NCBI GenBank assembly: GCA_965178125.1
Contig: OZ237753.1
Coordinates: forward strand, 372,001-436,000
Direction of reading: 5' to 3'
DNA length: 64,000 nt
Source: Bilabrum cf. latius
Taxonomy: Eukaryota
In this document: positions 1 to 64,000 of the stretch, in pieces
Numbering within the stretch: the first letter of the stretch is position 1
How the letters are laid out: each line of letters starts with the position of its first letter
Notes under the pieces: generated by a model
What the model was told of the DNA's origin: nothing
Databases searched by the model: none
Seen by the model: the letters and a program-made list of their open reading frames with translations, nothing else
Position numbers and translations under genes: made by a program

Positions 1-2413
1 CCCCCACAGCGATCCATGAGTCAAAGGAACCGTCTAAGTGGCCCAAGTGCTCGACGCTGGAGCCAAAGTAATCGAAACCATTCAAATCAAACGAGAAACC
101 ACCGCTTTGTTCTGCGATCAAGGTGAAGTGAGACACACCCACAGTGGTGTCGGATGCAAAGGCGATCACCACACCCCCGTTCCAAATGTCACCATTGCTG
201 CTAGTATACGATGCCCCTGCAGCGAAATCGTCCCTTCCGTTCCCGTCCAGGTCGCCCAGCCCAGCTAGTGCGGTGCCCAGGCGATGCACAGGTTCAGGGA
301 GACCGCTTCCGCCGCTAGTGTTGAAGCTGTGGTGGTCGAGCTCGATGGTCCTGTTGACGGTGTCCGTGTTTGCGTTCATGAGCAGCAAGACAATGTTGCC
401 TTCGAAGCTATCAGCGCCGGGTGTACCACCCGCGATGTCGGTCACGCCGTCCCCGTTGAAGTCGCCGATGGACGCGACCGACCACCCAAATCCGCTCGGC
501 AGCGCGCCCACCCCCGCGTTGTTGCTCCTGAGCACGGTGAAAGAGGAAGCCTCACCCGAGCTCTCGTTCATGCGCACGAGGTACGACCTCGATGCGGAGT
601 TAGCGGATAGGATGACACGAAGGGGCATATTCTAGTCTTCCGCCCAGCCGGGCCGAATCACATCCAGGTCGACCGCGAGATGGTAGCTGCCACCTATCGC
701 TGTATGCATGGGGTTGTCCGTAGGTACCACTGGTGTGGCAGATTTGACCGTACCGTTGCGGTGCAGCAGCACCGTCCAGGCCTGACCTCTGCTGCTGACA
801 GCTCCGACGTCGGCAAAAGGCGCTCCGATCATGACGTCAGGGACCCCATCACCATCAATATCTCCGATGGGTGCCGCACCCGTCGCATAAGAGTCATTGA
901 GCCCGAGCACTACATCATCGGGCCATCCGCCGCGGCCCAATCTACCAATCTCAACGATCTCAGATACGCTGCCAATCGGGGCCGCAGCAGCGGAGGGAGA
1001 AGCAGAGGGCGTTGGGGAAGGACTGGGGCTAGGCAGGGCGGCGGCGCCTCCCACGCTGATGATCGCAGCGCCTCCGTAGTTAGTGCCACCGTAGTCTGCC
1101 TGGGGTAAACCAGCGAGGATCTCCCTCCGCCCGTCTCCGTCAAGATCCGCGACGGTGTCCAGCGGCACCATGCGGGCTCCAGCGGGGAGAGTGGACAGAG
1201 CGGGAATACTTCTGTCCAGTTGGTCCACGCTCTTCACCGGGTCTGTCTCATTCCCAGGGTTCATGTACAGAATGTAGATTGCCCCGCTGCTCGAAGCATA
1301 GCCGTCCGCGCTCGCGAGCAAGTCAGCCACGCCGTCTCCGTCCATGTCTCCGGCTAGGCAAAGGGACTCACCGAACCGATCGCCGAGTGAGTAGTCAGTG
1401 TTCAAGATGCCACCGACCCCTCGATGAGCCACTTGGACGGCAGAGCCAGGCACGACGCCACCGTCGTAGCCCAGTCGGAACACAGCGATAATGCCGTCGT
1501 CTATCTAGACCCTGTAGAAGACAGCGACGTCCACGGGATTGCCTTCCTGCCTCGGGGGCATGGCGGCGATGGCGGCGCCAAGGTCTTCCCTGTCAGCACC
1601 CGGGAGGGAGCTGAGGCCCTCGCCCGCCAGCATGCTCAGCCTGCGAGCGCTCTTGACCGTGTCGTTGCCGTGCATGAACAGGACGAACAGGGCACCATCG
1701 TCCGTGCCGTTCATGTCCGCCTTGGGGGCACCGACGAGCAGATCGACGAAGCCGTCTCCGTCCACGTCTCCAATGCCCGCCTCAACTGCGGAACCGAACT
1801 CGTCACCCGGTGCTATGGTGCCTGCCGGAAGGCCGCTCACATTGTTCTGCAGGATGGTGCGGTTCATCATCGTGCCGTTCGGCCAGAGGCGAAGGACCTG
1901 CACTCGGCCAGACAGTCTGCCGTTTGCGTCAGAGCCATCCTCTCCGACTGCAAGGCGCAGCAGCTCAGGACTCTCGCCGTTTGACTGTCGGAAGGCAGTA
2001 GGGCTAGAGCCGAAATGGCCCTAACTGCCGAATGCCAAGCTGCCACTCTCCGGGATGCGATTAGCAGCTTTCGCCGTGCCATTTGCATTCAGTAATACAA
2101 CGTGCAATGCACCAACATTGGATATTGGATGCGAACCGTAGTTGGGCGCATGCAGTACAATGTCTGTTATCCCATCGCCGTCAAGATCACCAAGCGAGGC
2201 TCCGCTCTCGCCCATTTCGTCGTTCGAATCCACTACGGGGGCTGGCAATCCGCCAACCCCAGCACCAAGAATCTATACTTTCAAAGCAGTCCCAGCTGCC
2301 GCGGGAGACGGTGAGGGACTGGCTGCCGCGGCGTATGCATCTCCTGTTAGGAGCGCAAGCGATACGATAGCGAGCCGGCTAATGCTCTACAGAGTGGGCA
2401 CAGTCTGACTCAT
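1..2413 (-). CDS. Secreted/surface FG-GAP (integrin-alpha-type beta-propeller) repeat protein, 5' part; runs off the window; 5 in-frame TAG
   Basis: ATG at 2413 gives a signal-like N-terminus (MSQTVPTL*SISRLAIVSLALLTGDAYA). ORFs 2021..2248, 1505..1903 and 632..1483 share one frame, broken only by TAG (2387, 2273, 2021, 1505, 632). Repeated GDxDGDGxxD...GAP motifs and SPSPSPTPS linkers. The frame appears open to base 1. Confidence 0.88.
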
Positions 2414-4005
2414 GCCGATGCAATTACCTTCAATCCGCACAGGCATGTATTCACGACTAGCAAGTACGTCCTTGTGAGTTCCACGCGCAGTGTTTGAAGC
2501 AGTTGTCGACGATGCCTGAGGACCGCCTTCGACGCCCGTTGCTATGAACAAACTTTCTGCAAATATATGCTAGGCAAATTAATCAATGGTTGTTGCACAA
2601 AGGCTGTCCGCGACGGCAGAGGAGCGGCGGCAGCTGTAGCAGAATGCAAGTTTCACGCTAAACAACGCCATTTCATGGGCACAATTGCTGGAAATAACAT
2701 GGAGTTGTGTCAATGAGGCACAAAATCAAACTGATACGACCCTTGAACGAATCAAACGAATGCCGAAAGGGTGAGCAGAACCACGGGTCGGAAGCAGATT
2801 GGCGGCGACACACTACAGCAGGGGCAGTAAATTTGGCGCCACACATTATTCTTCCCTCACTTGCTGTTATGGCTAGTGCTAGGCTCCTTTTTACTTGAAC
2901 CTAGAGCCTGGTATGGACCTAACTCGATTGGTAAAAACTGAGGACCTCTTGGTCGCAAGAAGCTCTTGCGATCCAGCAGTGTGACGAGTCACTGGCAACT
3001 CCCCAGGATTTCTGCAGTTTGGAGACTTACAAACTGAATTTGAGCGCGTCCTGCATGATAACTGCTTCTCGTGCATTTTCATGCGGAACCCAAGCTTGCC
3101 ATACAACGCATCCTTTTGTACCTTCATGGTTGGTGCTGCGCGGGCTGCCACAGCGCCAGCCGACGATGCCACGAGCGCACCACTTTCCAGGTTACCAGTC
3201 TGCTGTAGCGCGCTCTCCCACCGAGATCGAATTGCGTCCGTGGCTCGTGGGAGCTGCCCCGAGCTGGGTGCGGTTGCAACTTGTTGCACCAGCACTGCGA
3301 TGTGCTCGATCGGATGAACCAGGAAAATGTAGCGCCTGCCCACCGATGCATGTGCGCCCGCCCGCACACCTGCCCCCGCGGTGATTTTGATTCCCTAGGA
3401 CCACCCGAACGGCACGGCTCGCTCGCACCGCGAGGCTTTCCGTGCCTGTGTCCTGGTCGCGGATGGGGAGCTAGAGCCCCGACCACCCTAAGCACCTTGT
3501 CCGCTTCTTTCCTTTAAAGCAGGCGTTAGATATTAACCAGAGATTAGAAATAGATAGGCTGGTGCGGATGGGGCCGTCCCCATCGCTGCGCCCTCCGCAA
3601 TGCAGTGTGGCTAGGGGTGACTGGCGCGGGGCTTCTGATGCTGCTCACTTGGGCGACTGTACTTAGATTTACTTTCTTGGGAAGTGCCGCAGGTGCACAT
3701 TGACGTGCGCAACCTGCTACGGAATTTGGAGTGCTTGGACATCGATTCGTGGGACAAATGATCGCAAGAGATGAATCTGCTGGCTGCAAAATGCGCCCAG
3801 ATCGGATCCTGCACCAAGGTGACCACGCAAGTGGGGGAATGCTACCATCCCCAGATTGCGAGACACGTCCCCCTGGAGCAATCCGCTGCTCACCACTCTC
3901 CGTATACTTCGTGAACTCTCTGCTGGGCCGTCGCTACCGACTCTGGGTCGACGTCAAACACATTTAACCACAGCACAGGCACGTGAAAGCATTCACGCTC
4001 GGTTC

Positions 4006-7000
4006 TCACGCCTGCTCCGCGTCCTTGCCACCACCGCCCCCAACCTTGGACGCTGTCGCTGCGGTGTGAGGTCCCACCACCTCGGTCCCCACGTCGGTAT
4101 CCTTCTCCTTGGTCGCTCCCATCCACTCCAGCGCCAGCAGCACCAAGTACGCCACGATCCACACGGCCGCTGCTGCGGCCGTCACGCCGACCCACCCACC
4201 GCTCGGAATGCCGGCCTTGTCCGACGCCAGGCCCGCACCCAGGATCACAGCGAGCAGCCCCAGCACGCTGGCGATGTACCCGAAGCCCTTGTGCGCGATC
4301 TCCCACATGGGCCGGCTGGGCTCCCCCTTGTGCGGACGCATAGCCCCGAGGACCCCCTGGATGAGGGCAAGCACTACCACGATGATCCCCACGATGGAGT
4401 GACCGCTAGTGAAGTGCTCGTCGCTGCCCACATGAGTTGCGATAAGCGCGAATGCGATGATGGTCAGCACCACTGCAAGCCCCTGCGCGATCTGATGCGT
4501 GCGGAACCAGCAAGGCACGCTGGCAGGCGCCGCATGGTGCGCATCAGCATCCGTTCCAGCGCCATCACTGGCGGGAACAGGCGCAGCAGCTTTGGGAGCG
4601 GCCGGCGTGACGCCCAGCTGCTTGCAGAACCTCGCTGCGATCACACCAGTGGGCACCAGCACAGCCCACGCCAGGCCCATCATCACACCGTGCGCCACGA
4701 TCAGCCCAGCCAAGGCCACAGCCTCCACCGCACCAGTGCTCAAGTCCACGCTGACCACGGATCGGCCGGCCAGGCTGTGAGCCCCGCTCGACTCGATGCT
4801 GCTGGCTGACCCGTGCTTGGCCATGAGCATGAAGAGGTCCCCTTCGGATCCGCCCGCGGGCAGCACATGGTCGCCCGAGTCGCCCGTATCCAGGGCCCGC
4901 GTGAACTCCATCACCCAGCTGCCGTTCCGCTCGTACAGCCTCGTGTTGGTGAGGCTGGCCTCAGCGTCCCGAGCGATGCCAGACCCGAAGCCCGACCGTC
5001 CACTCAGATCGTACTCTCGCACCGAGTCCGCGGCCGATGCGGCTCCCAGGGTGGCCACCACGGCATGCGTGCCCGGCATGGTGGCATCGTTCGGGTTGAA
5101 GCCGAGGGCGAACCACCCTTGCGTTGCATCGTGCACCACTCTGGCGTGAAGGTACTAGTCAGTCGCGGCATCGCCAGACCCAGACACCACGGCAGCTCCG
5201 GCTCCCGGGTCGGCGTTGTTGGTCAGGCTCCACATGACCTCTAGGCCGCTCACTAGCTCCTGCCGAGACGCGAAGGAGCCATCTGATAACCCTGCAAAAC
5301 CCGTCGAGGCCGGTGGCGGGGCCACGAAGTCCACGACCTCCAAGCTACCTGCGGCTGCATTCGACGTCCACGTGCCCTGGGACCGCAGGGGACTGCTGGC
5401 GTTGTTGACCTGCACACCCAGGCTGTCCACCAGATCGTTGTAGGCCGCGGCAGTGTCTGTGTCTGCCGGTACGATGCTGAACCGCACCACCACGCTGCCG
5501 CGCTCCACAGACTTCACCAGCACGCGAGACGCCTCGATGGCCAGAGCCCCCGCCACGTCGGCGGCGAACTGAGTCTCGAAGGCATCTGGATCCGACTCGT
5601 AGTCCTGATCGAAGTCAACCGCCAGTCGCAGCCCAAGCACCACGCGAGACACGGCGCCCGGTCCCATGGCAGCAGGATCTGTTCCCTGAGGCGGCAGTCG
5701 GCATCGGCTCGAGGTGCTGTCAAACGTGAACCCAGGAGCGCACTCGCTGCAGCTAGGGCCGGTGTGACCCGGGTCGCACACGCACTGCAGACCCCCGCTA
5801 GTAGACTGCACTACGTCGCACCGTCCACGGCCCGAGCAAACCAAGGCGTTGTCGCAAACAGTGGTGGGCCGCAGCACCACACTGCCCGTGCCACGAGACG
5901 AGTGGTACGCGATGCCGTCCAGGCTGCCCTGCCGCATGCTGCCCATCGCCCAGATGAATCCAGTGCTGGCCTGCTCCACGGCCGACCACACCCCGTCCTG
6001 CACGTCGGTGGCCGCCGCACCCTCAGCATCGACCAGCGGCCGACGGAACACCAGCACCGCCCTCGCCTCGTCCGTTGCCGCCTGGGATCCAGTCGGGGCA
6101 CTGCCAGCGAACGAACCTGATTCCAAGAAGAGGTTCCCGGCTGCATCGCTAGACGCGACCGCTGACTTGCTGGGACTAGAGACCATATCGTAGGGAAGCA
6201 CGCGTGGCGGGCTCTGCCCCAAGAGGCCCACCACGGCGCGCCCAGTGGTGCCGGACAGCATCGTGCCGCTGGCCGACTGAGCCAGCCCAATCCACTCCGT
6301 GCTGGCGGGCGCGGCCTGCTGCAGCTCGAGAGACATGCGCACGTGCGTGGGCTGCTCGGTGCTGGTGCCGGCCACGAACTCGCTGCCCTGGGCATCCTCC
6401 AGCCTCCACCTGAGCTTCATGACCGGGTCGCTGGTGTCGCTCCCGATGGGCACCATGTTGTCAGCGGGGAACTGCACGGCTGCGATGACGGCTGCTGCTG
6501 AGGGTGACACGCTGGTGCTGGACGACGGCAGCACTGAGGTGCTAGGGCTTGGCGATGCAGATGGTATGGTGCTGGCGCTCGTACTCGTGCTCGGGCTTGC
6601 GGATGCCGTCGGTGTGCTTGACGGGTCCGCGCCCGGGGATCCACTGACGCTGGGGGTCGGGCTGCTTGAAGGTGTGATGGATGAGGTGGGTGAGCTGCTC
6701 GGGATCACGGAGGGTGTTGATGTCGTCGACGGCGAAGGGGAGGGGGAGGGTGCCGGCAGGCCCACTGTGGGCACGGGGTCCGGTACTGCCACCCAGTCGC
6801 CGTTCGAGTCCTGGACCGAGGCCCGGCTCGCGAGAGAGATTGACACGGTCTCCGCACCGTTTCTTACGCCAGAGATGACTGGTTGGATGACCCACGTGGC
6901 CGCTGTTGCTCCCTGCGTCACAGACGTGATGTCTGACACGGTGGCGGTGCCTCCCGTGGAGGAGATGGTGTATGCGCTCGCACCAAGGGCCCCGCCGTCT

Positions 7001-7866
7001 GCCGCTTGAACAGGTCCGCTGAACTGGGCCGTGATGGCCAGGCTCGTGCTGTTGATCGATAGGCTGTCCAGGGTCACGGATGATACGGTGAAGTTCTCCT
7101 GGATGGTCATCTCGATCGTGCCGTAGTTGAACCCAGAGTACATGATGTGGGCCCGGAATGTGATGGCGCCAGTGCCGGGTGCTGGCGGGTCCCAGACCGC
7201 AGTGACACTCTACTTGGTGTTGGAATTCGTATGCGTGACGCCATTGCATCCGCTAACAGCCTTCCTGCGCACAAAGTAGCCAAAGGCTGCACATGTCTAC
7301 CGAAGTGAACACAACGCATCAGTGTCACACCAATATCGTGTACAATCATCAGTTCGCAATATTCTAATACTATCAATTAGAATAATGGATCTATCTCAAG
7401 CAGATGCGCACCGCGCACCACAGGATTGTCAAGAACGAGGGTCGGGACTCAACTTGGAACCCGACGCGGCTGCACAAACTCACACTCCGCTGCTGCCTGT
7501 GTCCGCAGTGATTGACCCAATGGATCCTGATACTACATTTGTTGCACCTGGTGACGCACCGCTGGGGTACCCGAACAGAAAGACGCCATTGATCGCATTC
7601 GACCCTGATGACGTCTTTGCAATGCAAATGAAGCTATCCCCGGCAGAGGTTGCGTCGTAGCTCTAGAGTTGCGTTGAGCAGGATGAATCAGAATACACTC
7701 CAAACGAGAACGTGGGCGGGCTTCCGCCGAGGGAGTGCGGGCCCTGGGGACTAGTGTGGCAGTTCACGTTCCCACGGTACCCCGAGGAATTCGCCTTTGC
7801 GCCGTGCAATGAGAACAAAGAAGCCACAGCTATGAAGCAAGCGTGGGTGAACGAAATCATTCGCAT
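4006..7866 (-). CDS. Reeler + Ser/Pro linker + DOMON + EGF + DOMON + cytochrome b561 protein (extended SDR2/ferric-chelate-reductase-like), about 1,213 aa; join(4006..7264,7484..7866)
   Basis: Signal peptide MRMISFTHACFIAVASLFSLHG. GT-AG intron 7265..7483 restores the frame. Reeler-like CNGVTHTNSNTK*SVTAVWDPPAPGTGAITFRA. DOMON motifs (WIGLA, FRRPL, IWAMG..YH; WFALGF, FTRALDTGD). EGF CSGRGRC..CVCDPGHTGPSCSEC. b561 His motifs (AHGVMM, WFRTHQ, GHSIVG, AHKGFG). In-frame TAG at 7663, 7210 and 5155; ends TGA. Confidence 0.87.
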
Positions 7867-8062
7867 GATTTGGTATGGTCGATGATCTATTTCGAAGCAG
7901 AATTGTGTGGTTGCACCCCTCCGAAAACGGTCAGTGACGTCCACCTAATCATGAAGATGAAGCATAATACCAGCGGCGGTTGCAACCCTATTTTCAATAT
8001 TTCAAGAAGAAGACACAAATATCGGATGCAGTGGCTTTGTTTTGCACCCTAGACGACTAGGG

Positions 8063-10552
8063 ATGTCTCGATCAACCGTACGCAAGTTTAGCAATGGTAT
8101 TGAGCTAAGTGACGGCTCCATTAATGGGAGCGGGATTGGGTCGAGCCAGGTTTTGCACTCATCAGTGCCGCGACGACGAAAGCCATCGCTTCCCACGACA
8201 ATTGTCATTCCTGTAGATCCCGAAGCACAGGATAAGGAGGTGGTTCAGCTAGGCCCTCCCAAGGAAATGATGCTGCACCTTGGGGACTTGCCTCCAGCAA
8301 AGCGAACGCCGGCAGTTGCGCGCCTAATCGTCTCAGCCTGCACTCTGCTGCTTGTCGCTGCTCTCATGGGCCTGTTTGTGGCAGTAGGAAACACTCGAGT
8401 TGATCCGCTGTTTGTGAATACGTCAAGCGGGCCAATACTGGGCAAAGTCCGCGGGGACGCCGACACTTGGCTTGGGATACCGTACGGGACGGCTCTGGAG
8501 AGATTCGCACAGTCTCAGTCGGTGAGCACGTGGTCCAAGCAGCTCAACGCTCTTCGAATTGGACCCCCGTGCATGCAAGCAGCAGGTGCTTTTGGTGAGT
8601 TGAGTGCCTGTGCTCCGCTTTGGACCGCTGCGATGCGTTCTCGTCACATTTCACTAGCGCGCATTCCGAAAGACTATATTTGCTTCCTTGTTGCAGGTTA
8701 TGATATTCCTGGACTGGAATCGAAGCATTTTCCTGCCCCTACTGAGAAGAACTGCCTGACCCTGTCCGTGTATGCCCCCCGCGGCCTTGCCGAGCAGGCT
8801 CGCAAGGACGGAGCAGGTGCTCGGCGCGTCCCGGTGCTCATCTTCCTGCACGGGGGCGCGTTCGTCGCGGGGTCGGGCTCGTAGCCGCTGTACAACGCCA
8901 GTTTATTGGCGAGTGAGCAGGGAGCTGTCGTGGTGGTGCCCAGCTACCGCCTGGGGCCGTTCGGCTTCTTCTCGCACCCGGAGCTATCCGCGGAACGGGA
9001 AACCGGAACTAGCGGGAACCAGGGGATCGGGGACCAGAGCAGGGCCCTGCGCTGGGTGCGAAGGAACATTTTCGTGTTCGGTGGTGACCCGGAGAGGATC
9101 ACGGTGTGGGGGCAGGGCGCGGGCGCCGTGTCTGCTCTGCTTCACGTAGCGGCGCCGCGCTCCTCGGGGAAGTTCCGCAGCGTGGCGGCCTGGAGCGGAG
9201 CCATTGACACGAGCGCACCGCCCAGTGCAGCACAGGGCGGCGCCGCGAGGAGCGGAACCGGGCAGCTCCCCTCCCTGGCTCAGGCCGAGGCCGACGGGGT
9301 GGCCTTCGCTACGGCTGCCGGTTGCCCAGCGGGCAAGGGCCAGCTGGCGTGCCTGCGCGGCCTGGACGCAAATGTGCTGGCCCAGGCGGCCGTGCAGGGA
9401 CCTTGGGCGGCTTCCTGGGGGCCCATCAGGGATGGCACCGTGCTGCCCGTGGATGTGGGGGCCGTGTACAGGAGCCGGCAGGCCCTGAGGGACTCGCTCC
9501 CCGGGGGCCTCCTGCTGGGGCACAGCATGAACGACAAGAGGACTACCCTCAGGTACAGGATGGCCTACCAGGCCGCGGGGCACAGCGCTTTGGACCAAGG
9601 TGTGACGAGTGGTGGGGCTGGGGTTGTGGACGCGCCGCCGCAGCCGGTGGACAAGGTCTCGCCCGAGGGTGCGCGAGCCTTCCTCCAGGATTCGCTAGGC
9701 CTCTCGTCGCAGGAGGCGGTGGACCGGGCTGTGGCGTTCTACGGCGGATCCGCCGGCCTTTCCGACTCCGAGTCCGCGCGCAATTTCGGCATTGTGGCCG
9801 AGGCGGCCACAGACGCTGAGGACCTGTGCGCGAACCGGCGGCTGCTCGCCCGCGCTGTGGGCGCGGGGATTCCCGCGTGGGGTGCGCGCCTGGACTCCCG
9901 CCTCTCGTTTGTTCCCCCAGGAGAGGGCGCCGCGCATTACCAGGACCTGGCTCTGGGGTTCGGTCGCGCGTGCTTTCGGCAGTGCGGAGGCAGCGGTGTG
10001 GGGCAGGGGCTGGGGATGGGGCGGGGGCAGGGGCAGGGGCAGGGGCAGGGGTTCAGTCTGATGGAGGCTGGTGACAGCAGCAGTGTTGGCAGCAGCAGTG
10101 GTGACAGCAGCAGTGGTGACAGCAGCAATGGGTTCTCCCCGCCTGAATCCGGTCTCGGGTACGCCTTCCGCTGGGCGCTCCTGAATTTCGCCCGGGGTGG
10201 TGACCCGCGCACGTCAGCGTCGTCGGGATACGACGACGACGCTGACGACGGCGCTGCTGGATTGCATGCTGAGCCAGAAGTCGATGCTACCGTTAGTGTC
10301 GGATCGACGCCGCGAGAGGGCTGGGTGACGAGTGCGATGGAGGCACAGAAGGAGCAGATGGGCCGCTGGCCGGTCTTTTCGTGGGCGGGAGGAGAGGACT
10401 TGGGCGGGTCTAGTCGCGACCGCGACGGGCGCCGGCCGGCGGGACCTGGAGCGCAAGCTGCTGACGGGATGCTGTCCATGCGATCCGCAGGCACGCACCC
10501 GGCCGCCTACTCGGATGACCCCGCGGCTTGCGATGCTGTTTGGAATGGGTGA
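8063..10552 (+). CDS. Type-B carboxylesterase/cholinesterase-fold protein with N-terminal TM, nucleophile Ser absent, about 795 aa; join(8063..8594,8697..10552)
   Basis: Motifs WLGIPYG, EKNCLTLSVYAP, PVLIFLHGGAF.AGSGS*PLY, SYRLGPFGF, GNQGIGDQ..ALRWV..NI..FGGDPERITVWGQGAGA. In-frame 102-nt gtgag...ttgcag intron. TAG at 8882-8884 joins two same-frame ORFs. Ends TGA. Confidence 0.87.
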
Positions 10553-50200: not shown

Positions 50201-50520
50201 GTCGCCCCGTCATCCGCAAAGAACGCTCCAACTGCCACATCAGGAACCCCGTCACCGTCCACGTCAGAAATAAACGCAGCCGACTCCCCGAAAATGTCAG
50301 AATTCTATAGAGATGGGGCTCCGGCGCCACCCACTCCGTGCGCAATCTTGACAGCGGTTCTCACCACGCCAGGTGCTGCTGGAGAGCCCGAAGGGGAAGT
50401 GCTGGGCGTGGGGCTGCTGGACGCCGACGTTTGCAGCCTTCGTCGCAGTCCCTAAGTATCCATGTCTGACGCAAATGTTAGGGCAATTGTGCATGCCAGC
50501 CAGATGGACATGGATGACAT
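29260..50520 (-). CDS. Giant intronless FG-GAP propeller / REJ / GPS / multi-TM polycystin-1-like receptor, copy 2, about 7,086 aa
   Basis: ATG at 50520 ([23 protein letters not shown]). 25 listed minus-strand ORFs share one frame. The internal ORF ends and gaps I checked contain only TAG (not every gap was re-read). TGA at 29260-29262. Nine FG-GAP modules, then a body nearly identical to copy 1. Confidence 0.88.
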
Positions 50521-50842: not shown

Positions 50843-51889
50843 TTACTTTGCATCTTGATGCGGTGACTTGGGGGCTTCGCGTGGCTCGTCCCCGCCATGG
50901 ATCAACGACGGCTGGTCTAGGTCCATCCCATCAGACCGCCGCGCTGCTCCTCCTGATGTCGGCGAGGAATATTCCTTAGCAGGTCCAGCTCTTTCGGTGG
51001 GTAGGTCCTCTGCCTGACGAACGCCTGACCGACTGCTACCGCGCATCCTCCAACGGTCTCTGCTCATACTGTCGGAGCCGCCACCACCGCGAGAACTCGA
51101 GGCGGTCTTGCTATCACTTGAAGCAGCAGCAACGCTAGGACCAGGTCCAGCTCCCCTGCCTGCGCTTTGGAGACCCTCCAACAGCGGTGAAGGCGAACCA
51201 AACCCAGCACGAAACTCACCAGGGAGAATGCGCTCCGCTCGCAAGTAGACCTCGACGTCCAGAAAATCACCAGGCTCCCAACCGTGCTCGCTCAATGTGC
51301 TCGTCCAACCTCCCTTGCTCAAGCCTGCCCTAGCATTTCCGTAGGTTGCCGCGGAGCCGTGCACGGACGGCTTGATGGCCGATGCCACCTCTAATCCCTT
51401 GCTGGTCGCAGTCGTCGAAGCACCGGAGTCTGCTGTCTTTCTTGGCACCGCCGTGGAGACATCAGTGTTGGAAAGTGCCAACGTCGCAACCTCCATTGCA
51501 GGCAGCTGTGGTGCAATCGCCTTCAACTTGTACCGACCATCCTTTCCCGGATACACCAATCCGACCGCTACAAATGCGTCTGGCCGTCGTGCCTAGAAAC
51601 ATTGTGTTTGAATCTCGGTGACTATGTCACAGATACGGCTGTGCGGCGACGCAAAGACGTGCGCTTCTGGACCGATTCCAGGCGAGCCCAAATCGGACCG
51701 CTTGCCGAATTCGTAGTCCCGCGAAACATCACGAAGACGCGATGACCGAACCATACATCGCATAAGCGATGGAATCTGCGATGCATGCAAGCCGCAAAGA
51801 TTGTACTCATGGTAAGGTGCATACACGGATCCAAAATACTGGCCCGAAACGTTGCTTACGGCGTAACTCACTTCAACTTGCGACTCCAT
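50843..51889 (-). CDS. SAP18: SAP18-like (Sin3-associated/ASAP complex) protein, about 316 aa; probable join(50843..51775,51872..51889)
   Basis: PSLMRCMV..EAHVFA..RICDIVTEI..F*ARRPDAFVAVGLVYPGKDGRY..TLSEHGWEPGDFLDVEV resembles the SAP18 ubiquitin-like domain. In-frame gtgag...gcag intron. TAG at 51593. Ends TAA. Confidence 0.7.
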
Positions 51890-52110: not shown

Positions 52111-53688
52111 ATGGATGAAGCAGTATTGGCTGGGAGCCACGATGCTCACGTGCAGTGGGGAAGCTCCAGCAGTCACGAATCCAGCGCAATCTATGAGGCG
52201 GTCAAGAGCAGGAAGTATGACATAGCGCTAGGACTTCTGAGCATTGATACCCCGGTTCGAGACTTGAGAGCCGCTACGCTCGCGGAGCAACAAGGTCAGC
52301 TGGACCTCGCGGCAAAGATCCGCGCCGCATTCGTCCGGTAGACGCCGCCGTTTATTCCACGGACCCGGGATGAGCGCGCTGATGAAATCAGCGGTATGAG
52401 TCTTGATTATAGCAGGCCAACATCGACCGGGTAGCCCAGGCAGTCGTCTGGGGAGGCCACTCCAGCTGCCTACGAGGAGATGACGCGTGGCGGAGGCCCT
52501 GCTATCTACGGTCTTGGTGAGGATCATCAAGAAGAAGCTTCAGAACAGCGACCATCGTCCATTGGACCTGCTGGCTCTGGCATCCCGCGCTCAAATGCGG
52601 GCGCAAGCCCGGCCACGGGCCCCGTTCTCGCGTTCTCCATGGCTGCCGGCCACTAGGGTGGAGGTGGTGAATCCACGCCGCTGGCCGAAGAAGTCGAGCA
52701 GCAGCAGAGGGAGATCGACATGATGATTGCAGAGGCACAAAGCAGCGGCCACCTTATTTCATCCGGGGATCAGGGCAGGGATGGCGTGCAGTTCGCTGCG
52801 CTGTTCCCCGCTCGGGAGGTGAGCGGGGCCAACTCTAGCCTCAGCGCGGATGATCTCGAGAGGATGGAGGAGGCCGCGAGAACGTTCGCTGACGACCTCG
52901 AGAAGGACGAGGAGCGAGAGCAGTATGAGCGTGATGTTGGTCGTCGTCGCCTCCGCAGGGCTGCACCCGGAGGTGCGGAAGGCGAGGACGAGGGCGAAGC
53001 GCATGAGGCAGACCTTAGAGAGCTGGAGGCTCTGATGGAGGACGAGAGACACAGCATCGGGTCCAGGAGCATGATGGGTGGTGTGACGAGTGACCGCAGG
53101 CTGGGATCCGAGGCGATGCGACGAGGGTTCTCGGACGGGGGCGTGAGCGTGGGGAGTGAGCTGTTCGACGTGGTGTCTCGGGAGCAGGGCCGGTACATCG
53201 TGGGGGGCGGTGATGCAGGTGGTGGTGCGGGCGGGGAGGATGAGCTGTTTGAGGTCACGCGCCGCGGGCACGGGACTGGTGTGGAAGTGGGGTATGAAGA
53301 TGAGGAGGAGGAGGACTAGGAGGAGGAGTGTGTCTATGAAGAGGAAGAAGAGGAGGACCGTGATGGGGAGGAGCAGGAGCAGGAGGAAGCAGAGCAGGAG
53401 CAAGAGGAAGAGTATGAGGATGAGGACTTGCGGCGCATGGAGGAAGCGGCCAATTACTTTGCTGCTGAGCTGGAGGGAGATGATGGAGCCAGGCAGACAG
53501 GTGGTGGTGTACGTCGTGAGATGTCGGACGGGGGCGTGAGCGTGGGGAGCGAGCTGTTCGACGTGGTGTCTCGGGAGCAGGGCCGGTACATCGTGGGGGG
53601 CGGTGATGCAGGTGGTGGTGCGGGCGGGGAGGATGAGCTGTTTGAGGTCACGCGCCGCGGGCACGGGACTGGTGTGGAAGTGGGGTAT

Positions 53689-53720
<32 letters not shown>

Positions 53721-54105
53721 GGAGGAGGAGGAGGAGGAGGAGGAGGGTGTCTACGAAGAGGAAGAAGAGGAGGACCGTGATGGGGAGGAGCAGGAGCAGG
53801 AGGAAGCAGAGCAGGAGCAAGAGGAAGAGTATGAGGATGAGGACTTGCGGCGCATGGAGGAAGCGGCCAATTACTTTGCTGCTGAGCTGGAGGGAGATGA
53901 TGGAGCCAGGCAGACAGGTGGCAGAATGCGTCGAGGGTTCTCGGACGGGGGCGTGAGCGTGGGGAGTGAGCTGTTCGACGTGGTGTCTCGGGAGCAGGGC
54001 CGGTACATCGTGGGGGGCGGTGATGCAGGTGGTGGTGCGGGCGGGGAGGATGAGCTGTTTGAGGTCACGCGCCGCGGGCACGGGACTGGTGTGGAAGTGG
54101 GGTAT

Positions 54106-54137
<32 letters not shown>

Positions 54138-55413
54138 GGAGGAGGAGGGTGTCTACGAAGAGGAAGAAGAGGAGGACCGTGATGGGGAGGAGCAGGAGCA
54201 GGAGGAAGCAGAGCAGGAGCAAGAGGAAGAGTATGAGGATGAGGACTTGCGGCGCATGGAGGAAGCGGCCAATTACTTTGCTGCTGAGCTGGAGGGAGAT
54301 GATGGAGCCAGGCAGACAGGTGGTGGTGTACGTCGTGAGATGTCGGACGGGGGCGTGAGCGTGGGGAGCGAGCTGTTCGACGTGGTGTCTCGGGAGCAGG
54401 GCCGGTACATCGTGGGGGGCGGTGATGCAGGTGGGTCCAGTGGCGCTATGCCTGGCGATCGCAGCTACGAGCACACGGAGGTGTACGTGCCTGGAGTTGG
54501 CACCTACGTCCGTGAAGGGTCCGTCGGGGCCGAGGGAATGGACCTGCAGCCGAAAGGACAAGGAGGGTATGATGATGACGACGGCCAGTTCGATCCATCC
54601 TTCGATCCGCTCGGTCACGTGCTGGACGACGCCGACGAAAACGGTGCGGCCCCGTCGATGACCGGATCGTAGGCACGCTTGGCTCCCCGAACGCGCGGCA
54701 ACGGTAGGCTGCCAACCCTTCCCACTCGGGGGGCGGCTCGGAGCTCGAGGCCCACTCGGGGACGCCCCGTGCCGCAATCCAGGGGTTCTCAGAGGGTGCT
54801 TCGTGCCGCGCGGAGAGCCAGGGAACAACGCTTGGCGGGGAGGCGGGATCCACGCAGCACAGCTCTAGTGGCGCAGCTGCGCGAGCTGGCAGAGCGAGCC
54901 AGCAGGGGATCTGCTGGGCACGCTGGGAGGCAACCCAGTTCTGGTAGCTCTGGCCATTCTGCCGTGCGGGGACCCGCGTTCCGTGCCTCGGGCACGCGCT
55001 CCAGCCGGCCCGCTCGAGTTCGATTCTCGGGCGGTCGCCCAGGCGGTGATTCATCCGCCAGGCGTGGGCCACTTCGCCGCACCTCACCCGAGTTGGCTGG
55101 GCACCGAGAGGACCACGACCAGCTCGAGAGGTACATCCACCAGGACCTGCTACACAGCACGCACGGCCAGGAGGCGGGCTGGGCCGATCACCGGGAGGGT
55201 CCCCCTCAGGGCACCAATCACGCAGATGACGTACTGCTGGAGGAGGACATCTGGTACGAGAGGGGCCAGTCTGGCATGCTTCGCGGTGTGTCAGGTGCGG
55301 TGCGCATTGGGCGCTCTGCGGAGGCCCGCCCACTCAGTGCCGAAGAAGGAGGAGACGACCTTGGTCAGGGCATGGCAGCCTGGGCATCGGACGAGCTGGG
55401 CCAGTTGGAGTAA
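52111..55413 (+). CDS. Low-complexity Glu/Gly-rich protein with internal tandem repeats and a basic C-terminal region, about 1,100 aa, function unknown
   Basis: ORFs starting at 52111, 52720, 53428 and 54679 share one frame, separated only by TAG. Ends TAA at 55411-55413. Confidence 0.72.
53131..54434 (+). repeat. About 400-bp coding tandem repeat (about 3.2 units) with variable (GAG)n tracts
   Basis: tcggacgggggcgtgagc at 53131, 53524, 53941 and 54343 (periods 393, 417 and 402). Confidence 0.93.
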
Positions 55414-55601: not shown

Positions 55602-57560
55602 TCACTTGCCACCGCCGCCTGCCTTCTTACCCTTAAGGAGCTTGGCAGCCCCCGTTGTGCGCTTGGCACCACCTGCCCCCGGGCCCGAGGACACCATGGC
55701 ACCATCCTCCCCTCGCTTGTACGTGTAGCCCACCACGCGGGTTGGGCGCTTGGCCCCGTCGGACCTCGCCGCGACGATCGCTGCTGCATCGGCAGCGGCC
55801 TGCTGATGGGCCGTGAGGCCGCCCTTGGCATCCCTCTTGATGATCCCACCATGGTCCTCGAAGTTGGCCGCCAGCTGCTTGACCAGCTCGTCGTACGTGG
55901 GATCGGATCGATCCATCTCCGCAAGGCGCTCCATCAGCTCACCGGCCCGTTTGCCCACCTCTGACACGTACGGCCCGTCCTTGTCCCCTAGCCCCTCCCA
56001 GTCCATCCCCTTGAACCACGGGTGCGCCTTGAGCTCTTTGGCCCCAGCCACAGTCCCCAGACGATCCTCCGGCTCGCAGAGCAGCCTCTGCACGAAATCG
56101 AGGCATTCGGGCGAGAGGTGCTTGGTCCGCTTGGAGGGCCAGCCGAGCGTCTTCTGCCAGTTCAGGATCTTGCGGCAGGTGCCGACCGGGTCGTCGGCAT
56201 AGAACGGCGGGTACCCTAGCAAGCACTCGTACAGGATAGCACCCAGGGACCACCTGCAGGGATGGACAGATGCATGGGCGGGAAATATGGCAAGCTTCTG
56301 GGTTCGCACTTACGTGTGTAGGCAGGCAATCGGGAAGATACACGAGGCGCGCTGTAGCACATGCCTGCTCGCGACACGGATGCGCAGTCCCTTGTCTCAC
56401 CAGTCGACTTCCTTTCCATACCTGCGCCGTGCATGGGTTCAATCATACAGGTGACAACATGCATCAATCGCCTAGGTTCGAAGGACAGGGAGGAATATTG
56501 TGCAACACCTCTCACCCTTTGCGGCGCAGCACGTCAGGCGCGATGTAGTCCGGTGTGCCCACCGTGGACTTGGCCAGGGCGCGGGGCCGATGGAGCGTGC
56601 CAGCACGGGCAGCTGCGCCCGCATCGATGGGCACGCCGGGAGGCGCCTCGGACCCGGGAGCATCGCCGCCGGAGCCAGCCCCGCCCCCCGCAACCTCGCT
56701 CGCAGCAGCAGCGTCCGCTGCGTCATCCAGCCCGCCGTCGATCTTCTTGGCGAGGCCCATGTCCGTCAGTTTTACGTGTCCGTGCCCATCGATGAGAAAA
56801 TTATCGGGCTTGAGGTCGCGGTGGATGAAGCCTGCGGCGTGGACTGCCTCGATCGCTAGGATCATTTCAGCGGCGTACACCTTGGTGGCTTCCTCGGTGA
56901 AAATGTCCTTGGCGATGAGCATCCCCATGAGATCTCCCCCACTCATGAATTCCATGACAAGGTACAGGTTCTCGTGATCCTGGAAGCTGTAGTGGAGTCC
57001 TACAACCCATCGATTCAACACATCGACAAGGGCTTCGCGCTCAGCGATAACGTGGGCCGTCTGCGGCATCATTCGGAGAGTGCACGCAATTAACACACAC
57101 ATTGCTTTCATATCCGGTTCAAGAAGGGCAAATGGAGCCAAACTGTATTGGGGCGGTCCTTGAGACGAAGCATTCTTTCTAAACGCCTCCTGATTCGTTT
57201 CTATTTCTAGCTCACCTGATTCTTTGCCAAAGAAACCTCTTTCTTCATCGTTTTCATGGCATAAATTTTGCCATCTTCTCTAGCTCGCACGATTTGCACC
57301 TCGCCAAAGGCGCCTCTACCTACAACAATAAGCCCCTCAAAGTCTGCCTGGGTGTAACGCTTCCTAGACTTTCGCGCTTGCGCTTCCAGCTCAGCAGCTT
57401 CTGCCTCTACAGTTGCACGTTCTTGCTCCGACAGAGTTTCATCAGCTAACTTTGTGTGGATTCTCTCCCTCCAAGCCCTCCTTTCTGCCATGAGCGCCTA
57501 GCTCTTCAGCAGTCGTTTCTGTAGCTCAGCTTTCGCTGCTGCAGCTTTTGCGGCAGCCAT
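55602..57560 (-). CDS. NDR/LATS-family AGC Ser/Thr kinase, about 520 aa; join(55602..56253,56401..56421,56516..57060,57216..57560)
   Basis: VGRGAFGEV, YAMK, LYLVMEFMSGGDLM, IHRDLKPDN, an insert before STVGTPDYIAP, and a C-terminal VVGYTYKR. Three gtgag...cag introns; exon lengths sum to 1,563 nt. TAG at 57498 in the N-terminal region. Ends TGA. Confidence 0.9.
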
Positions 57561-58212: not shown

Positions 58213-59214
58213 ATGGCAGCAGCAACAGCAAAAGCAGCGAGCAGCACCGGGACAGGTGATGGGGCCACGTCGACCGGGGCAAAGGGTATCTCAGTGACGG
58301 CCCGACCATCGAAAGAACGCGGACACGCCAACCATGGCTGGTTAGATTCATACCACAGCTTCTCGTTTGCTGGATATTATGATCCGCGGCACGACGGGTG
58401 AGTTTAGTGCTACGTTTTGCTATAGCAGTATCGTACAATTTCCACGACTACCTGTCACCGTGTTCGCTAAATTTCTGCGAATTTCTTGTGGATTCTAAAT
58501 TATGCTGTCTTCACTCGCAGGTGGGGTCCGCTCCGCGTTATCAACGAAGACATTGTGTCGCCCTCCCAGGGCTTCGGGAGGCATCCGCACAGAACCTTCG
58601 AGATATTCAGCTACCCGCTGGCAGGTGCGCTGCGCCACGATGACAGCATGGGACACTCTGAGGTCATCCGAAGGGGTGATGTGCAGTTCACCTCCGCCGG
58701 CACGGGCATTGCCCACTCGGAGTACAACGCGAGCAAGACCGAGCAAGTCAAGTTCCTCTAGATCTGGCTGACTCCCAGCAGGGGCGGGCTCAAGCCGAGA
58801 TACGAGACGAAGAGGTTCGAAGATGAAGCCAAGAAGGACACGCTACTGCCCATTGTGGCCCAGGGAGGCCGGGGCGGTGCCATTGCCTGTGATGATGCGG
58901 CAGCTGTGTACGCCTCCATACTCTCAGAGGGCGCCGAGGTGCAGCACGAGTTCGACGGGGGCGCCGCGCGAAGCAGTTCCGCAGACGCCGCCGATGAAGC
59001 GCCCGCCAAGTCCCGCGTGGGCTACATCCACGTGCCCCTCGTGCCTGGCAGCCGCAGCAAGGGCCTCAAGCTGAGCTCGGGCCAGGTGCTGGCACCAGGG
59101 GACGGGGCCTACCTACGGGTCGCTGATGGGGCCAAGGGCGAGGATGCGAGTCTGGGATTCACCGCCGTGGGGGGCGCGACAGAGTTCCTGCTCTTTGACA
59201 TGACCCAGTCGTGA
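58213..59214 (+). CDS. Pirin-family (YhhW-like) cupin, about 292 aa; join(58213..58397,58521..59214)
   Basis: [60 protein letters not shown] (TAG 58759-58761). One gtgag...gcag intron. Ends TGA. Confidence 0.93.
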
Positions 59215-59413
59215 GAGACGGAGTGGTACCTCTATCGCTACTGTGACCGCGACTGCAACTGCGACTGTTGGTGGGCGTAGGTGCCGTGGCCTGGAGGTGT
59301 ATCGGCCAGCACGGTGCCAGTCAGCCATGGGTTGCCGCTGCTGGCCAGAAACGTTGCCATTGTGTGTTGATTTAAAATGAATAGAACGTTGCTCAAACAA
59401 CAGAATCAGATAA

Positions 59414-60450
59414 TCACGATTCAGCAGGTGCAATTCCTGAGGGTCCATCCGACGAAGCCATGCCACGGCCTCTGCCGCTGCCAGGCTTTCGTAAGGCAGC
59501 GTCGCGCAAATACTGCGAAGAAGCTGCACCGGTGGCCTCCACAAGTCGTCCGAATGCACTGTCCTCGCGGGACAGCAGCTCCGATGGAGAGCCTTGCTCC
59601 AGCACTCTGCCGTCGCCCATCACAACCACCACATCATAGTCGATGATCGTTGCCAGCCTGTGCGCGATGGTGAGGACAGTCCTGCCCTTGCAGTGCTCCC
59701 GCAGCGCTTTCTGCACGGCCTAATCTGCCTCCACTGACACCGAGGCCGTGGCTTCGTCCAGTGCCAGTATGGGCGAGTCTCGCAGGAGTGCTCTGGCCAG
59801 GCACAGCAGCTGCCTCTCGCCCTGGCTCAGCCCGCTGCCACCCTCCCCCACCCGGGCATCCAGTCCGCCGTCCATGGCACGGACGCGAACAGCCATGCCT
59901 GCTCGCTCCAGAGCCGCCCATACATGCTAGTCGCTGGGGCACTCGGCGCACGGCCTGCCAAGGTCAGGGTCCCAGTCGAGGCCCTGCTCCAGCCTCTTCG
60001 CACCTGGACCCGCCACAGCATCCATGATTCTCCCGCCGCTGTGGCCGGCTGCTGCAAGCCCGGTGCTGCGAGAGTGCGGGGACAGCACGCTCCGAGGACC
60101 CAGCAGTGGATCCGGACCCTGGGGCGATACCACCGATCGGATGGTGCCGGAGATGACAGCCCCGTCCTGCGGCACGATGGCGAGGTTCTCCCGCAGGTCT
60201 CGGAGGCCCATGGTTGCTGTATCGATACCGTCGATGGTAACGCTTCCCCTGGTGATGGTTGCCGATCTGTAGAGTGCTGCCAGAGTGCTGCTCTTGCCGC
60301 TCCCGGTGCGACCAACCAGCACAACCTTGCAGCCGGCGGCAACGGTGGCAAGCATCAAGCAAAAGGGGAACTGGCAACTGCTATCCGGGCTTCGGAGCGC
60401 GCCTAGTCTGCGTAGCTTTCATACGGCATGATGAAACTCGACGATGACAT
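59414..60450 (-). pseudogene. Isolated C-terminal nucleotide-binding domain of an ABCC/MRP transporter; 5' end disrupted, no TM domains
   Basis: [57 protein letters not shown]. In-frame TAG at 59927 and 59720. Sequence upstream of the Walker A needs frameshifts and abuts the stop of the CLU-TPR gene. Confidence 0.7.
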
Positions 60451-60464
60451 CCGTACGCATTTAG

Positions 60465-63400
60465 TCAGTCTATGGGCTGGTCAGCGTTCATGTCGATTGA
60501 TTTCACCTAGTCAACCGCCTCACTGCACTTTCTCTACGACTCTGCACTATTCGCTATGCATTGAAGCGTCCAGGCATAGTCAGGATGGTCTGTGCCTAGC
60601 ACGTCCTCCTGGATGGACCTGCATTCCTCCAACACTCTACTAGACTCTTCGAAATCCTCCATAGAGTACAAGCAACTTGCAGTCATACAGAGCGACTCGG
60701 CATACTCGGGGTGTTGTTTACCGTGCGCATGCTCCAAGATCGTCTGGCACTGTTCGAGCAACTTTAGGGCCTTCCTGTACTCGCCCAATGACTGCAAGCA
60801 TCTGGCCATTTTTTGGAGCGCACTCGCGTACTTAGGGTGGTCTTCGCCAAAGACTCTTCCACGCCCAAGCAGACACTGCTGCAGCACCTTGATGGCATCG
60901 TCAAACTTCTCCAGTGCAGCCAAGCATATCGAAATGTTGCTCAAAACGGTCAGGCTGAACGGATGGTCCTTGCCAAGAACACGATTAGCGATATCTGCGC
61001 ACTGCTTAAAGTGCCCCAGAGCGTCGCCGTCCCTCCCCTGCTCATGCATGCACCACGCCATATTGTTGAGCGATATGGCATAGTCAGGATGATCCTTTCC
61101 GATAGTCTGCTGACGTATCATCAAGCACTTCTAGTACATGTCTGTAGACTCTGAAAACTTGCCCAAGGCCTGAAGACACCGAGCAATATTGCCTACCGTG
61201 TTCGCAAAGTCGGGATGCTCTGGACCAATGCCAGGCAGCTCTATCTGTATTTTGCTACACCTCTCATACAGCTCAATGGCTTCAGCATACTTGCCTTGAT
61301 GATCCAAGCACGTGGCCATGTTGCTCAGCGTACCAGCATAGTATCTGTGGCGCTCACCGTAGGCCGCTTTCAGTATCTTTGCGCAACGCTGGAACAGCCC
61401 AAGTGCTCTTGCATAGAGGCCCTACGAGTGCAAGCAGTTGCCAAAGTTATTCAGCGTCGTGGCGTGCTCAGGGTGATCCTTGCCGAGCTCATTCTCTTCA
61501 ATGCTGACGCAGGCTTCAAATATGCTCGTTGCCTCTGAGTGCATCCCCTGAGCCTACAAGCAGTCGGCCATGTTGGAGAGAGTTGTCGCGTCAGCACTCC
61601 GTGGGAACTCTGCGGTCGACTCGTCCCGCCCGAAGCAAGCCAACGCAAGCCGCACAGCATTTAGACCACTTGAATTCTGGCACAGCTCCCCAAGTGTTTG
61701 TTGCGCAGTGTATGCAGCAGATCCACCGACCCGCTGCAAGTGCGCCAATTCAGCCACGAGAGACCTAGTAGCAGTATCACGACCATGAGTGAAGAAACCC
61801 TATTCTGAAGCAATACGAGTTCCAACACAGTTTTGCGGCTTGCTCTCACGCCCAGGGATACTTGAAGTCGGCAACTTAGCTAACAGGTCTGCATCAGCAG
61901 GTACAAGGACAATTCCTTTACTCGAATGTAGCGTTGCCATTGTCCACGCTGCCCTTGATGCAGTACCATGCACTGTATCGTGACCGTGGAAAACATTTGA
62001 AGACCCAAGAGCAGCGATGATGGCGGTACGAGCTACGACATTGATACCAGGCTACTCAAGCAACACACGCAGATGCCTCAATCCGACACCTAGCGAGTGC
62101 ATGCATCCTTTGAGCAGTCGCCGACATGCTGCCGGATTTGCAATCATTTCAGCTTCAGACGAACCAACCTCACCTAGAGCAGCCTTGATCGTTTTCTCGC
62201 CTACTAGCCTCACGCAATCGTACAGCTTCTCAATACAACGCCTGGCGCTCTCCCATTCTACATGGCGATCACGTCGTTGCTGCATGACAAGGTCAGGGCT
62301 CAGGCCTGCCCACTCCGACCCTTCGAGCTTGCTGATGCATGCAGCTGCCTCTGGTGGTAGCAAACAAGTTAATGCTGAGTTCCCGCAGTAGTACCACTGG
62401 GGACATGATACGATGGCCGATAGTCCGCGTGTACCATCGGCTTTCGTCCCAATTACAGCAACACAACCGCGGTTCGCGTATACACGCATCATCTTGACCT
62501 GGAACGACAGCGGACAAGTGTGACAGAGGCGCGCCCAGTCCTCTAGTAATTTGCCCAACTTGCGCAAGTCGGGCTTTCCGTCTGCCTCATGTGCAAATTC
62601 AGACAAGGTGATCTGATGGACAGACGAGGAGGCGCCTGTACCAGCGCCTTCATGCAACCAAAGACGCGGTCTAGCGCCATCGGAGCCCATCCACTCCATC
62701 CAGACTACATCCGGGATCAGAAGTCGGTGTGTGTCTAGAACCACCCTCGAGCCGTTGGTCAGTTGGTGCACCTCCACGTCAAATGGCAGGCGTAGCAAGG
62801 TCTTTTGTGTCCCAGCAGGGTGATCTATTCGGTGACGTACCGAAATTTGTGGCCTGCGGTAGTCCAAGTTTACTCCTGATGACTTGATGGCGGACAACAC
62901 TGTCACGGCCAGCTCCACTTCTTCTTCGGGCAATCGTTCCTTCGCCAGTTCAGTCAGATTGATTGAATCTGGATCGCATACCCTTACAATCTTCTCAAGC
63001 TCATCTGCTGCCAAGCTCGTGCCTTTCAGAATCTCGAAGATGGTCTTGGGTCTGGAGGTGCTATCACTTTCAGGTTCATCATCAGCGACATACTAGTGCC
63101 TAATGACAGATCTAACGTGCCTTTCGTATGCATGCATGCCAAACCATCCAGCTATTGGATCCACAACATCATGAAGCTGCTCATCATCAACATGCATAGT
63201 CTTGCAGCCATCCGAAGACCCTACCCGAAGGGTTGCAGACTCCACGTCAACACAGGCGAATGCCTAGGCACGAATAAAGCAAATCCCACGGCTTTTTGTC
63301 TTCACTGGAATATCTACGCACTCCAATAGCGGGGTCGAGACGTGGACGCTGTCCATCGCGTGCACCCACCGACTCGCCGCTGCCTCCCGCTTGGCCGCTT

Positions 63401-64000
63401 TGGCCGCCATACGCGTACTTTTGTAATAGCCATTTTGATCGAATGCGAACTTTATGAAGAGTCCCACGCCTTCGTGCTTAAACTTGATACCACCTGCTCG
63501 GCCACCCACCGCAGCGGGCTGCAGTCCGGTACTGCGTTGGATGCCTGCAAGGTCCATGGAGGTGAACCCAACTGGATCGTCCCCTCTCCACACCATCTCT
63601 ACTACAGGGAAGTCATTGAAAACCTTGCTGACGTCAGCATGAAAGTGCTGCCCAACCTAGTCCAGCTTTGCACGACGCTCCATCTGCTCATGCGGGTTCA
63701 GCGCGACGGTGCGCTTGGCATCTTCAAACGCTGGCTAACGACCCTTCGGGGTTTGGGCTGCCTCGTCAGCCTCTTCTGTACCACTGCAGATACCACGTCG
63801 CTCCTATGAGCGGTGGTCGCTTATACTGCTGTCATCTACACCCACTGCAGTTGCCTAACTCATAGAAAGGTCCGCACCAGCACCTGAAGCGGCCGATGAC
63901 TACGGTACATCTGACCGTTCGTCAACCTGAACGGGCGAGTAATCGATGGCAGGGCAACCTGTGCTGCCAGCACCTAAATCTGCGCCTGTATTGATTAGAG
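60465..64000 (-). CDS. CLU-domain + kinesin-light-chain-type TPR protein, 3' part (start lies beyond the window), about 14 in-frame TAG
   Basis: GGIKF..GLFIKFAFDQNGYY..AAKAAKRE, PLLECVD, LRVGSSDGCKT (CLU-like). Multiple 42-aa TPRs (GKDHPDYAISLNNMA). Five ORFs in one frame with only TAG in the gaps. TGA at 60465-60467. Confidence 0.83.

Follow-up and report, generated by a model that had tools for sequence, protein, structure and literature searches.

Known codes that read UAG as glutamine

Decoding of both UAA and UAG (UAR) as glutamine is by far the commonest reassignment of nuclear stop codons (excerpt of PMC11687900). Codes in which UAG alone has become glutamine are described for Iotanema spirale, Protocruzia tuzeti, and two phyllopharyngean lineages. 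Other codes that split UAG from UAA give UAG to leucine in a rhizarian and a ciliate lineage and to serine in Scotinosphaera; in Amoeboaphelidium, TAG and TAA are both glutamine (excerpts of PMC5304391, PMC11687900, PMC6299283, and PMC9161772). Here we analyzed a window of 64 kb, which is the whole stretch from position 372,001 to 436,000 of contig OZ237753.1 and is numbered below from its first base, whose genes are interrupted in frame by TAG. The window is very probably nuclear DNA of a protist rich in guanine plus cytosine (GC), itself probably affiliated with stramenopiles, in which cytoplasmic UAG means glutamine and UAA and UGA are the sole terminators, UGA being the commoner of the two. 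Its code belongs to the known kind in which UAG alone is glutamine, in a lineage for which we found no earlier report. Our survey of the literature found no nuclear UAG-to-glutamine code, or other UAG reassignment, for stramenopiles; subscription journals lay largely outside its coverage, and earlier publication is possible, the more so because this sequence occurs in four studies.

The code of I. spirale (Fornicata) is alike in that UAG alone has become glutamine and UAA and UGA are stops (excerpts of PMC5304391 and PMC9161772). The two systems differ in termination, with UAA the predominant terminator in Iotanema (excerpt of PMC5304391) and TGA at 9 of the 11 listed gene ends in the window, and in affiliation, Iotanema being a metamonad and the nearest named kinase homologues of the window being stramenopiles. 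Protocruzia tuzeti and the two phyllopharyngean lineages likewise read UAG alone as glutamine and keep UAA as a stop, but these ciliates have 27 to 54% GC and UAA at 87 to 98% of gene ends (excerpt of PMC11687900), compared with 60% GC and mostly TGA here. The window also differs from them in holding genes of 14 to 21 kb within 64 kb, and 1 of 15 named kinase matches is a ciliate. A nuclear reassignment from stop to glutamine is shared with the UAR codes (table 6) of many ciliates, ulvophycean green algae, hexamitid diplomonads, oxymonads, and Amoeboaphelidium protococcarum, which presumably work via mutated tRNA-Gln genes (excerpts of PMC11687900, PMC6299283, and PMC5304391). In those codes TAA is also a sense codon, whereas in the window it terminates two genes and does not occur among the 18,382 coding codons. 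On paper, the codon table also resembles code 15 of crAss-like and other phages, in which TAG is glutamine (excerpt of PMC9523058), but these phages infect bacteria and the window has spliceosomal GT..AG introns and eukaryote-type genes. A phage or prokaryotic identity of the code was ruled out by the four GT..AG introns seen in spliced contigs together with the eukaryotic gene families.

TAG as a sense codon

The gene set used throughout comprises 11 definable models with a total of 18,382 codons; small unannotated open reading frames (ORFs) between the models are not part of it. These models contain 91 in-frame TAG codons and no internal TAA or TGA. Eight end in TGA, two in TAA, and none in TAG, and the remaining model (2..2551) leaves the window. 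A sequence-only reading of this DNA had stated that every gene is interrupted by TAG and none by TAA or TGA; this holds for the 11 models, the small ORFs between them falling outside the count. The gene ends that it named are all correct, with nine at TGA (4006, 10552, 26255, 27212, 29260, 55602, 59214, 59414, and 60465) and two at TAA (50843 and 55413). Recounting likewise reproduced its figures for the giant, intronless FG-GAP gene A (11712..26255, + strand), in which 4,847 sense codons include 24 TAG and no TAA, the only TGA being the terminal one. All of the motifs that it quoted are present (x marking the TAG), namely, FLxIW in pirin; ADCLxAQG and CLHSxG beside CLQALG, CLDHQG, and CMHEQG in the TPR repeats; and GERMx, SSVVx, and AHVx in the FG-GAP modules.

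The longest stop-to-stop frame in the window is 701 codons under the standard code, 7,116 codons (the next being 4,877) when TAG is read as sense, 701 codons when TAA is read as sense, and 878 codons when TGA is. None of the six longest frames changes when TAA is treated as sense. The frame-opening effect is specific to TAG, since only TAG as sense gives the frames of 7,116 and 4,877 codons. Chance is excluded as the source of such frames because TGA occurs 221 to 370 times per ~21,300 codons in each of the six raw frames but not once inside the frames of 4,847 and 7,086 codons. Mean GC at the three codon positions is 0.66/0.49/0.63 over the 60 codons before and 0.65/0.51/0.61 over the 60 codons after 71 internal TAG codons, and in the per-gene rows it shifts past the terminal TGA or TAA; GC at third positions alone (~0.62) is a weak coding signal here. 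TAG occurs at a frequency of 5 per 1,000 codons and makes up 13% of glutamine codons. All four bases occur after it, so that a fixed read-through context is excluded. Annotation with the standard code would break these genes, leaving no piece of the giant genes A and B longer than 691 codons.

Identity of the residue at TAG

Four independent kinds of alignment agree on, and support, glutamine as the predicted residue at UAG. The TAG of the pirin gene (58759-58761) coincides with the Q that is conserved in the "QxW" motif. When the protein was aligned with MAFFT to the best 150 of 7,474 library representatives, this column held Q in 149 of the 150 and S in 1, and it was Q in all four inspected alignments of 14 PDB matches (E. 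coli YhhW and human pirin). It is also Q in P0248, a pirin 97% identical to that of the window. At the TAG of the kinase gene (57498-57500, codon 21), P0121, which is 85% identical, has Q. A metagenome contig carrying both genes (L001) has CAA at the kinase TAG site and CAG at the pirin TAG site.

The TPR repeats of the CLU-TPR gene provided an external comparison in which a profile of the eight units in this gene recovered 972 units in 120 external proteins, mostly bacterial by source name. At the three TAG-bearing columns, Q was the commonest residue among these units (15.9%, 51.7%, and 26.5%, versus a background of 4.5%). The product of the three column frequencies, calculated by hand, was ~0.022 for Q and ~0.00013 for E.

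Within the window, further comparisons came from FG-GAP gene A and the equally giant and intronless gene B (29260..50520, - strand; 7,086 codons, 35 in-frame TAG, TGA end). The two are convergent (tail-to-tail) paralogues with 97% DNA identity over 8.3 kb, and they contain older internal modules that are 50 to 70% identical. The duplicated stretch breaks off a few codons ahead of the stop, which gives the two proteins different C-terminal tails. When TAG positions of the FG-GAP genes were treated as homologous wherever 12 or more of the 20 flanking residues were identical, they fell into 40 families, 16 of which had non-TAG members. The top residue in these 16 was Q in nine; E in two; and G, A, D, N, and V in one each. 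Among 53 well-matched partner codons, CAG occurred 18 times, CAA 2 times, and GAG or GAA 6 times, and TAT/TAC, TGG, AAG, and TTG did not occur. A likelihood calculated on the partner spectrum placed Q first (-319.6) and E second (-326.1), values that serve for ranking only, as the pairs are non-independent. In 22 families, TAG stood at the same position in both paralogue copies, with 17 of these in the part that is 95 to 96% identical. A homologue search with an 801-residue piece of gene A, made against shorter proteins only, returned a single match of 86 residues at 97% identity.

Remaining stop codons

The gene models contain 137 CAA and 449 CAG codons. If TAA stood to TAG in the same ratio, ~27.8 TAA codons would be expected beside the 91 TAG, and no internal TAA was seen. 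The Poisson probability of this zero is ~9e-13, a value somewhat inflated by the A/B paralogy, which makes the effective number smaller yet still large. In-frame TAA as common as TAG, which the sequence-only reading had named as a sign against its own proposal, was looked for in the 11 models and came to 0 TAA versus 91 TAG.

Both TAA gene ends look real. Over the 60 codons past the TAA of the SAP18-like gene, GC is 0.42 to 0.43 at all three codon positions, which is non-coding-like, and past the TAA of the acidic protein gene a TGA follows 22 codons on. The TGA end of the kinase gene gives a product of 520 residues, compared with 518 in P0121, and the kinase and pirin genes of the metagenome contig both end in TGA. 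None of the 11 listed gene ends is a TAG.

TAG in transcripts

Contigs of four public sequencing runs (X1, X6, X7, and X8) were aligned to positions 55400-64000. Spliced forms were present among the contigs of X6, X7, and X8, whose RNA nature was judged from the spliced contigs alone, no RNA run with this sequence being on record, and uncovered bins were not taken as evidence. Contigs of X1 were DNA-like, colinear with the window, and without differences from it. The spliced contigs define four introns with GT..AG ends and lengths of 94 to 155 nt. Three of these (56254-56400, 56422-56515, and 57061-57215) lie in the NDR/STK38-type protein kinase gene (55602..57560, - strand; 520 codons, one TAG, TGA end), whose four exons (57560-57216, 57060-56516, 56421-56401, and 56253-55602) are given by spliced contigs of X6, X7, and X8 and by the orthologue P0121. 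The 21-nt micro-exon at 56401-56421 is backed by spliced contigs of three runs, and P0121 reads identically across it. The fourth intron (58398-58520) separates the two exons of the pirin (YhhW-type) gene (58215..59214, + strand; TGA end), as seen in spliced contig X6 record 10; the start of this gene is approximate, position 58215 having been counted by hand on the translation of a spliced contig that begins at 58119. Pfam searches with the TAG-read frames returned eukaryote-type proteins, with NDR kinase, cytochrome b561-DOMON, and the CLU domain among the families. Because spliced contigs bear out the GT..AG introns and the gene families are of eukaryotic type, the window is eukaryotic, nuclear DNA.

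The kinase TAG is covered by spliced contigs X7 record 14 and X8 record 20. The pirin TAG is covered by spliced contig X6 record 10 and by unspliced contigs X7 record 16 and X8 record 22, and no other letters occur at either codon. Six TPR TAG codons and one ABC TAG codon likewise lie within contigs of X7 and X8. Neither editing nor splicing was seen at contig level at the covered sites, where contigs from X6, X7, and X8 keep TAG. Taken together, the invariant pirin site, the orthologues of relatives, the external TPR columns, the paralogue partners, and the spliced contigs bear out the earlier proposal that UAG is glutamine with UAA and UGA kept as stops.

The only differences listed in the run contigs are single-base ones at 59657 (C>T), 59780 (T>C), and 60272 (G>C), none of which is in a TAG codon. 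The T>C difference at 59780 is common to X6 and X7, and the three look like strain or allele variants.

Alternative explanations

Several points weigh against glutamine at UAG with UAA and UGA as the only stops. Variable TAG sites hold other residues in the PDB homologues shown (para-nitrobenzyl esterase has E, and Arabidopsis ABCB1 has K, R, or A); the TPR TAG sites in three kinesin-light-chain alignments shown are likewise variable, and the residues over all of these variable sites are E, K, R, A, or N. All of these positions (one in the carboxylesterase, two in the ABC fragment, and the TPR sites aligned to kinesin light chains) are variable and hence uninformative either way. The commonest partner is a residue other than Q in 7 of the 16 FG-GAP families. 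The last TAG of gene A, 19 codons ahead of its TGA and in a tail absent from B, could be a real stop, and a genome-wide minority of TAG terminators, giving the codon a dual role, is compatible with a sample of only 11 gene ends. Relatives may lack the same code, given that the metagenome contig is TAG-free in its orthologous codons. As to the decoding machinery, ARAGORN found no tRNA gene in the window or the metagenome contig, and the window is without eRF1. Finally, the runs with spliced contigs were labeled RNA by guess (one of them as "probably DNA"), and partial editing could have escaped notice, given that contigs drop rare variants.

In one rival reading UAG is ambiguous, serving as sense within genes and also stopping translation close to the ends of some of them, as happens in Condylostoma and karyorelict ciliates. 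The TAG in the tail of gene A that is not common to B and the small number of gene ends sampled are compatible with such a role; however, 0 of the 11 ends is a TAG, at 10 of them a TGA or TAA stands exactly where the end is expected, the kinase TGA matches the length of P0121 (520 versus 518 residues), and a dual role is unneeded because dedicated UAA and UGA stops remain, so that we regard ambiguity as quite unlikely. Nor does a different amino acid account well for the data. Glutamate, which UAG encodes in peritrich ciliates, ranked second in the paralogue likelihood test, supplied 6 of 53 partner codons (GAG/GAA), and occupies the carboxylesterase site in one PDB homologue. Against it, and against Leu, Ser, Tyr, Lys, or Trp, stand a pirin column with Q in 149 of 150, CAA or CAG in relatives at both testable orthologous sites, a TPR frequency product of ~0.022 for Q versus ~0.00013 for E, and 53 partners devoid of TAT/TAC, TGG, AAG, and TTG, which together leave another residue extremely unlikely.

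That the code is unchanged, with the TAG codons being pseudogene lesions, assembly errors, or sites of U-to-C editing or removal before translation, is barely conceivable. Nothing specific favors it beyond the guessed RNA status of the runs and the minor variants that contigs hide, but decay or error would not yield a single stop type, TAG is kept in both copies of 22 paralogue position families, contigs of the DNA-like X1 do not differ from the window, and the spliced contigs of X6, X7, and X8 keep TAG. A table 6 code, in which UAA too would be glutamine and TAA would be rare merely through high GC, has in its favor that it is the commonest stop reassignment in the literature (excerpt of PMC11687900) and that 60% GC disfavors A-ending codons, as in the 137 CAA versus 449 CAG. 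It is nevertheless very unlikely in view of the ~27.8 sense TAA expected and 0 seen (P of ~9e-13, inflated by the A/B paralogy), the failure of TAA as sense to lengthen any of the six longest frames, and the two genes that end in TAA and are followed by non-coding-like sequence.

Affiliation and relatives

Among the best 120 matches to the second kinase exon, 15 rows are organism-named, comprising 13 stramenopiles, 1 Symbiodinium, and 1 ciliate. The stramenopile matches are Hondaea (the best, at 52%), oomycetes, and several ochrophytes. In a FastTree phylogeny of the kinase only (111 rows), the window joined P0121 on a long branch among unnamed sequences, and the two sat in the half of the tree with oomycetes and Hondaea and not with ochrophytes; the program warned of long branches and odd composition. 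Judged by this single kinase gene, the organism is probably stramenopile-affiliated. By its terminators and GC it matches none of the lineages already described with UAG alone as glutamine. The genome had been described beforehand as non-ciliate-looking, and this agrees with 60% GC, TGA as the main terminator, GT..AG introns of 94 to 155 nt, and stramenopiles as the nearest named kinase homologues. An independent origin of the code, also proposed at that time, is plausible, with the caveat that the placement behind it comes from one gene.

The metagenome contig L001 (5.2 kb, 1-5199) carries pirin and kinase genes head to head, in synteny with the window, and its DNA identity to the window is 74 to 83% in five matched exon segments. 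No TAG occurs in its 768 orthologous codons, and ARAGORN found 0 tRNAs on it. One ORF of this contig (3-1040, - strand) has 346 codons with four TAG and no TAA or TGA. It lies beyond pirin, where the window has an ABC fragment to which it is unrelated, and it was rejected as a sign of a relative sharing the code on the basis of its lack of a Pfam match and its flat codon-position GC. A scan of genome contigs with the kinase exon found no relative.

Gene content of the window

Overall GC of the window is ~60%, ranging from 54 to 63% across 4-kb bins. ARAGORN found 0 tRNA genes in the window, and an Rfam scan gave 0 matches, hence no rRNA lies within it. Besides genes A and B, a third FG-GAP repeat gene (2..2551, - strand; Pfam FG-GAP, E = 7.4e-40) runs off the window start and has five in-frame TAG. 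It is followed by a gene for a Reeler/EGF/DOMON/cytochrome b561 membrane protein (4006..7359, - strand; three in-frame TAG, TGA end), assigned by Pfam, and by a carboxylesterase-family gene (8042..10552, + strand; one in-frame TAG, TGA end), assigned by Pfam COesterase (E = 3.1e-61) and PDB alignment. Between A and B lies a 136-codon frame (27212-27622, - strand) with one TAG, a TGA end, and a sub-threshold Pfam Fimbrial match (E = 9e-4), whose status as a gene is doubtful.

At higher coordinates than B are a weak SAP18-like gene (50843..51889, - strand; one in-frame TAG, TAA end), with a Pfam SAP18 match (E = 2.4e-5) under the curated cut-off, and an acidic protein gene (52111..55413, + strand; five in-frame TAG, TAA end). 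The latter contains a 417-nt unit in 3.2 tandem copies at 53131-54434, with 93% matching, each of which encodes a Glu-rich block. Past the kinase and pirin genes, a gene with a CLU domain and TPR_12 repeats (kinesin-light-chain-like by Pfam; 60465..63863, - strand; TGA end) has 13 in-frame TAG from its first ATG and 14 in the frame open to the window end. When homologues of the whole CLU-TPR protein were sought, the only matches were TPR proteins of bacterial type that covered ~30% of it, with no orthologue of at least 622 residues among them. About 100 bp past the stop of this gene, on the same strand, begins an ABC-transporter nucleotide-binding-domain fragment (59414..60358, - strand; two in-frame TAG, TGA end), assigned by Pfam ABC_tran and PDB alignment and without a transmembrane part upstream. 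In three runs, the DNA-like X1 among them, contigs diverge within it at 60339, which suggests that the gene fragment is duplicated or that the genome has a second arrangement.

Proposed decoding and implications

Glutamine at UAG, with UAA and UGA as stops, could be produced by analogy with described systems. A tRNA-Gln with the anticodon CUA would read UAG and, without wobble, would not read UAA, a logic taken from an excerpt of PMC11687900. In addition, a change in the N-domain of eRF1 might weaken recognition of UAG, as proposed by analogy with Iotanema, whose eRF1 carries a GTS>GGS change (excerpt of PMC9161772).

We tentatively suggest, while stopping short of calling it probable, that the UAG-only glutamine code of the window arose independently, in a GC-rich, probably stramenopile lineage, and that this origin has not been reported before. 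Ciliates and metamonads would then no longer be the only groups with such a code, and it would for the first time be paired with UGA, not UAA, as the main remaining terminator. The reassignment may be young enough for sister lineages to be still on the standard code, given the absence of TAG from 768 orthologous codons of the metagenome contig, whose exon DNA is ~75% identical to that of the window. If this is true, the lineage of the window and the relative represented by that contig would form a natural before-and-after pair for studying the separation of UAG from UAA. Codes that split the two codons are rare and bear on why both are usually coupled. A further case with high GC and a preference for UGA, in a different supergroup branch, would be informative in that it tests the need for low GC or UAA-biased termination in reassignment and offers another pair of eRF1 and tRNA-Gln for comparison.

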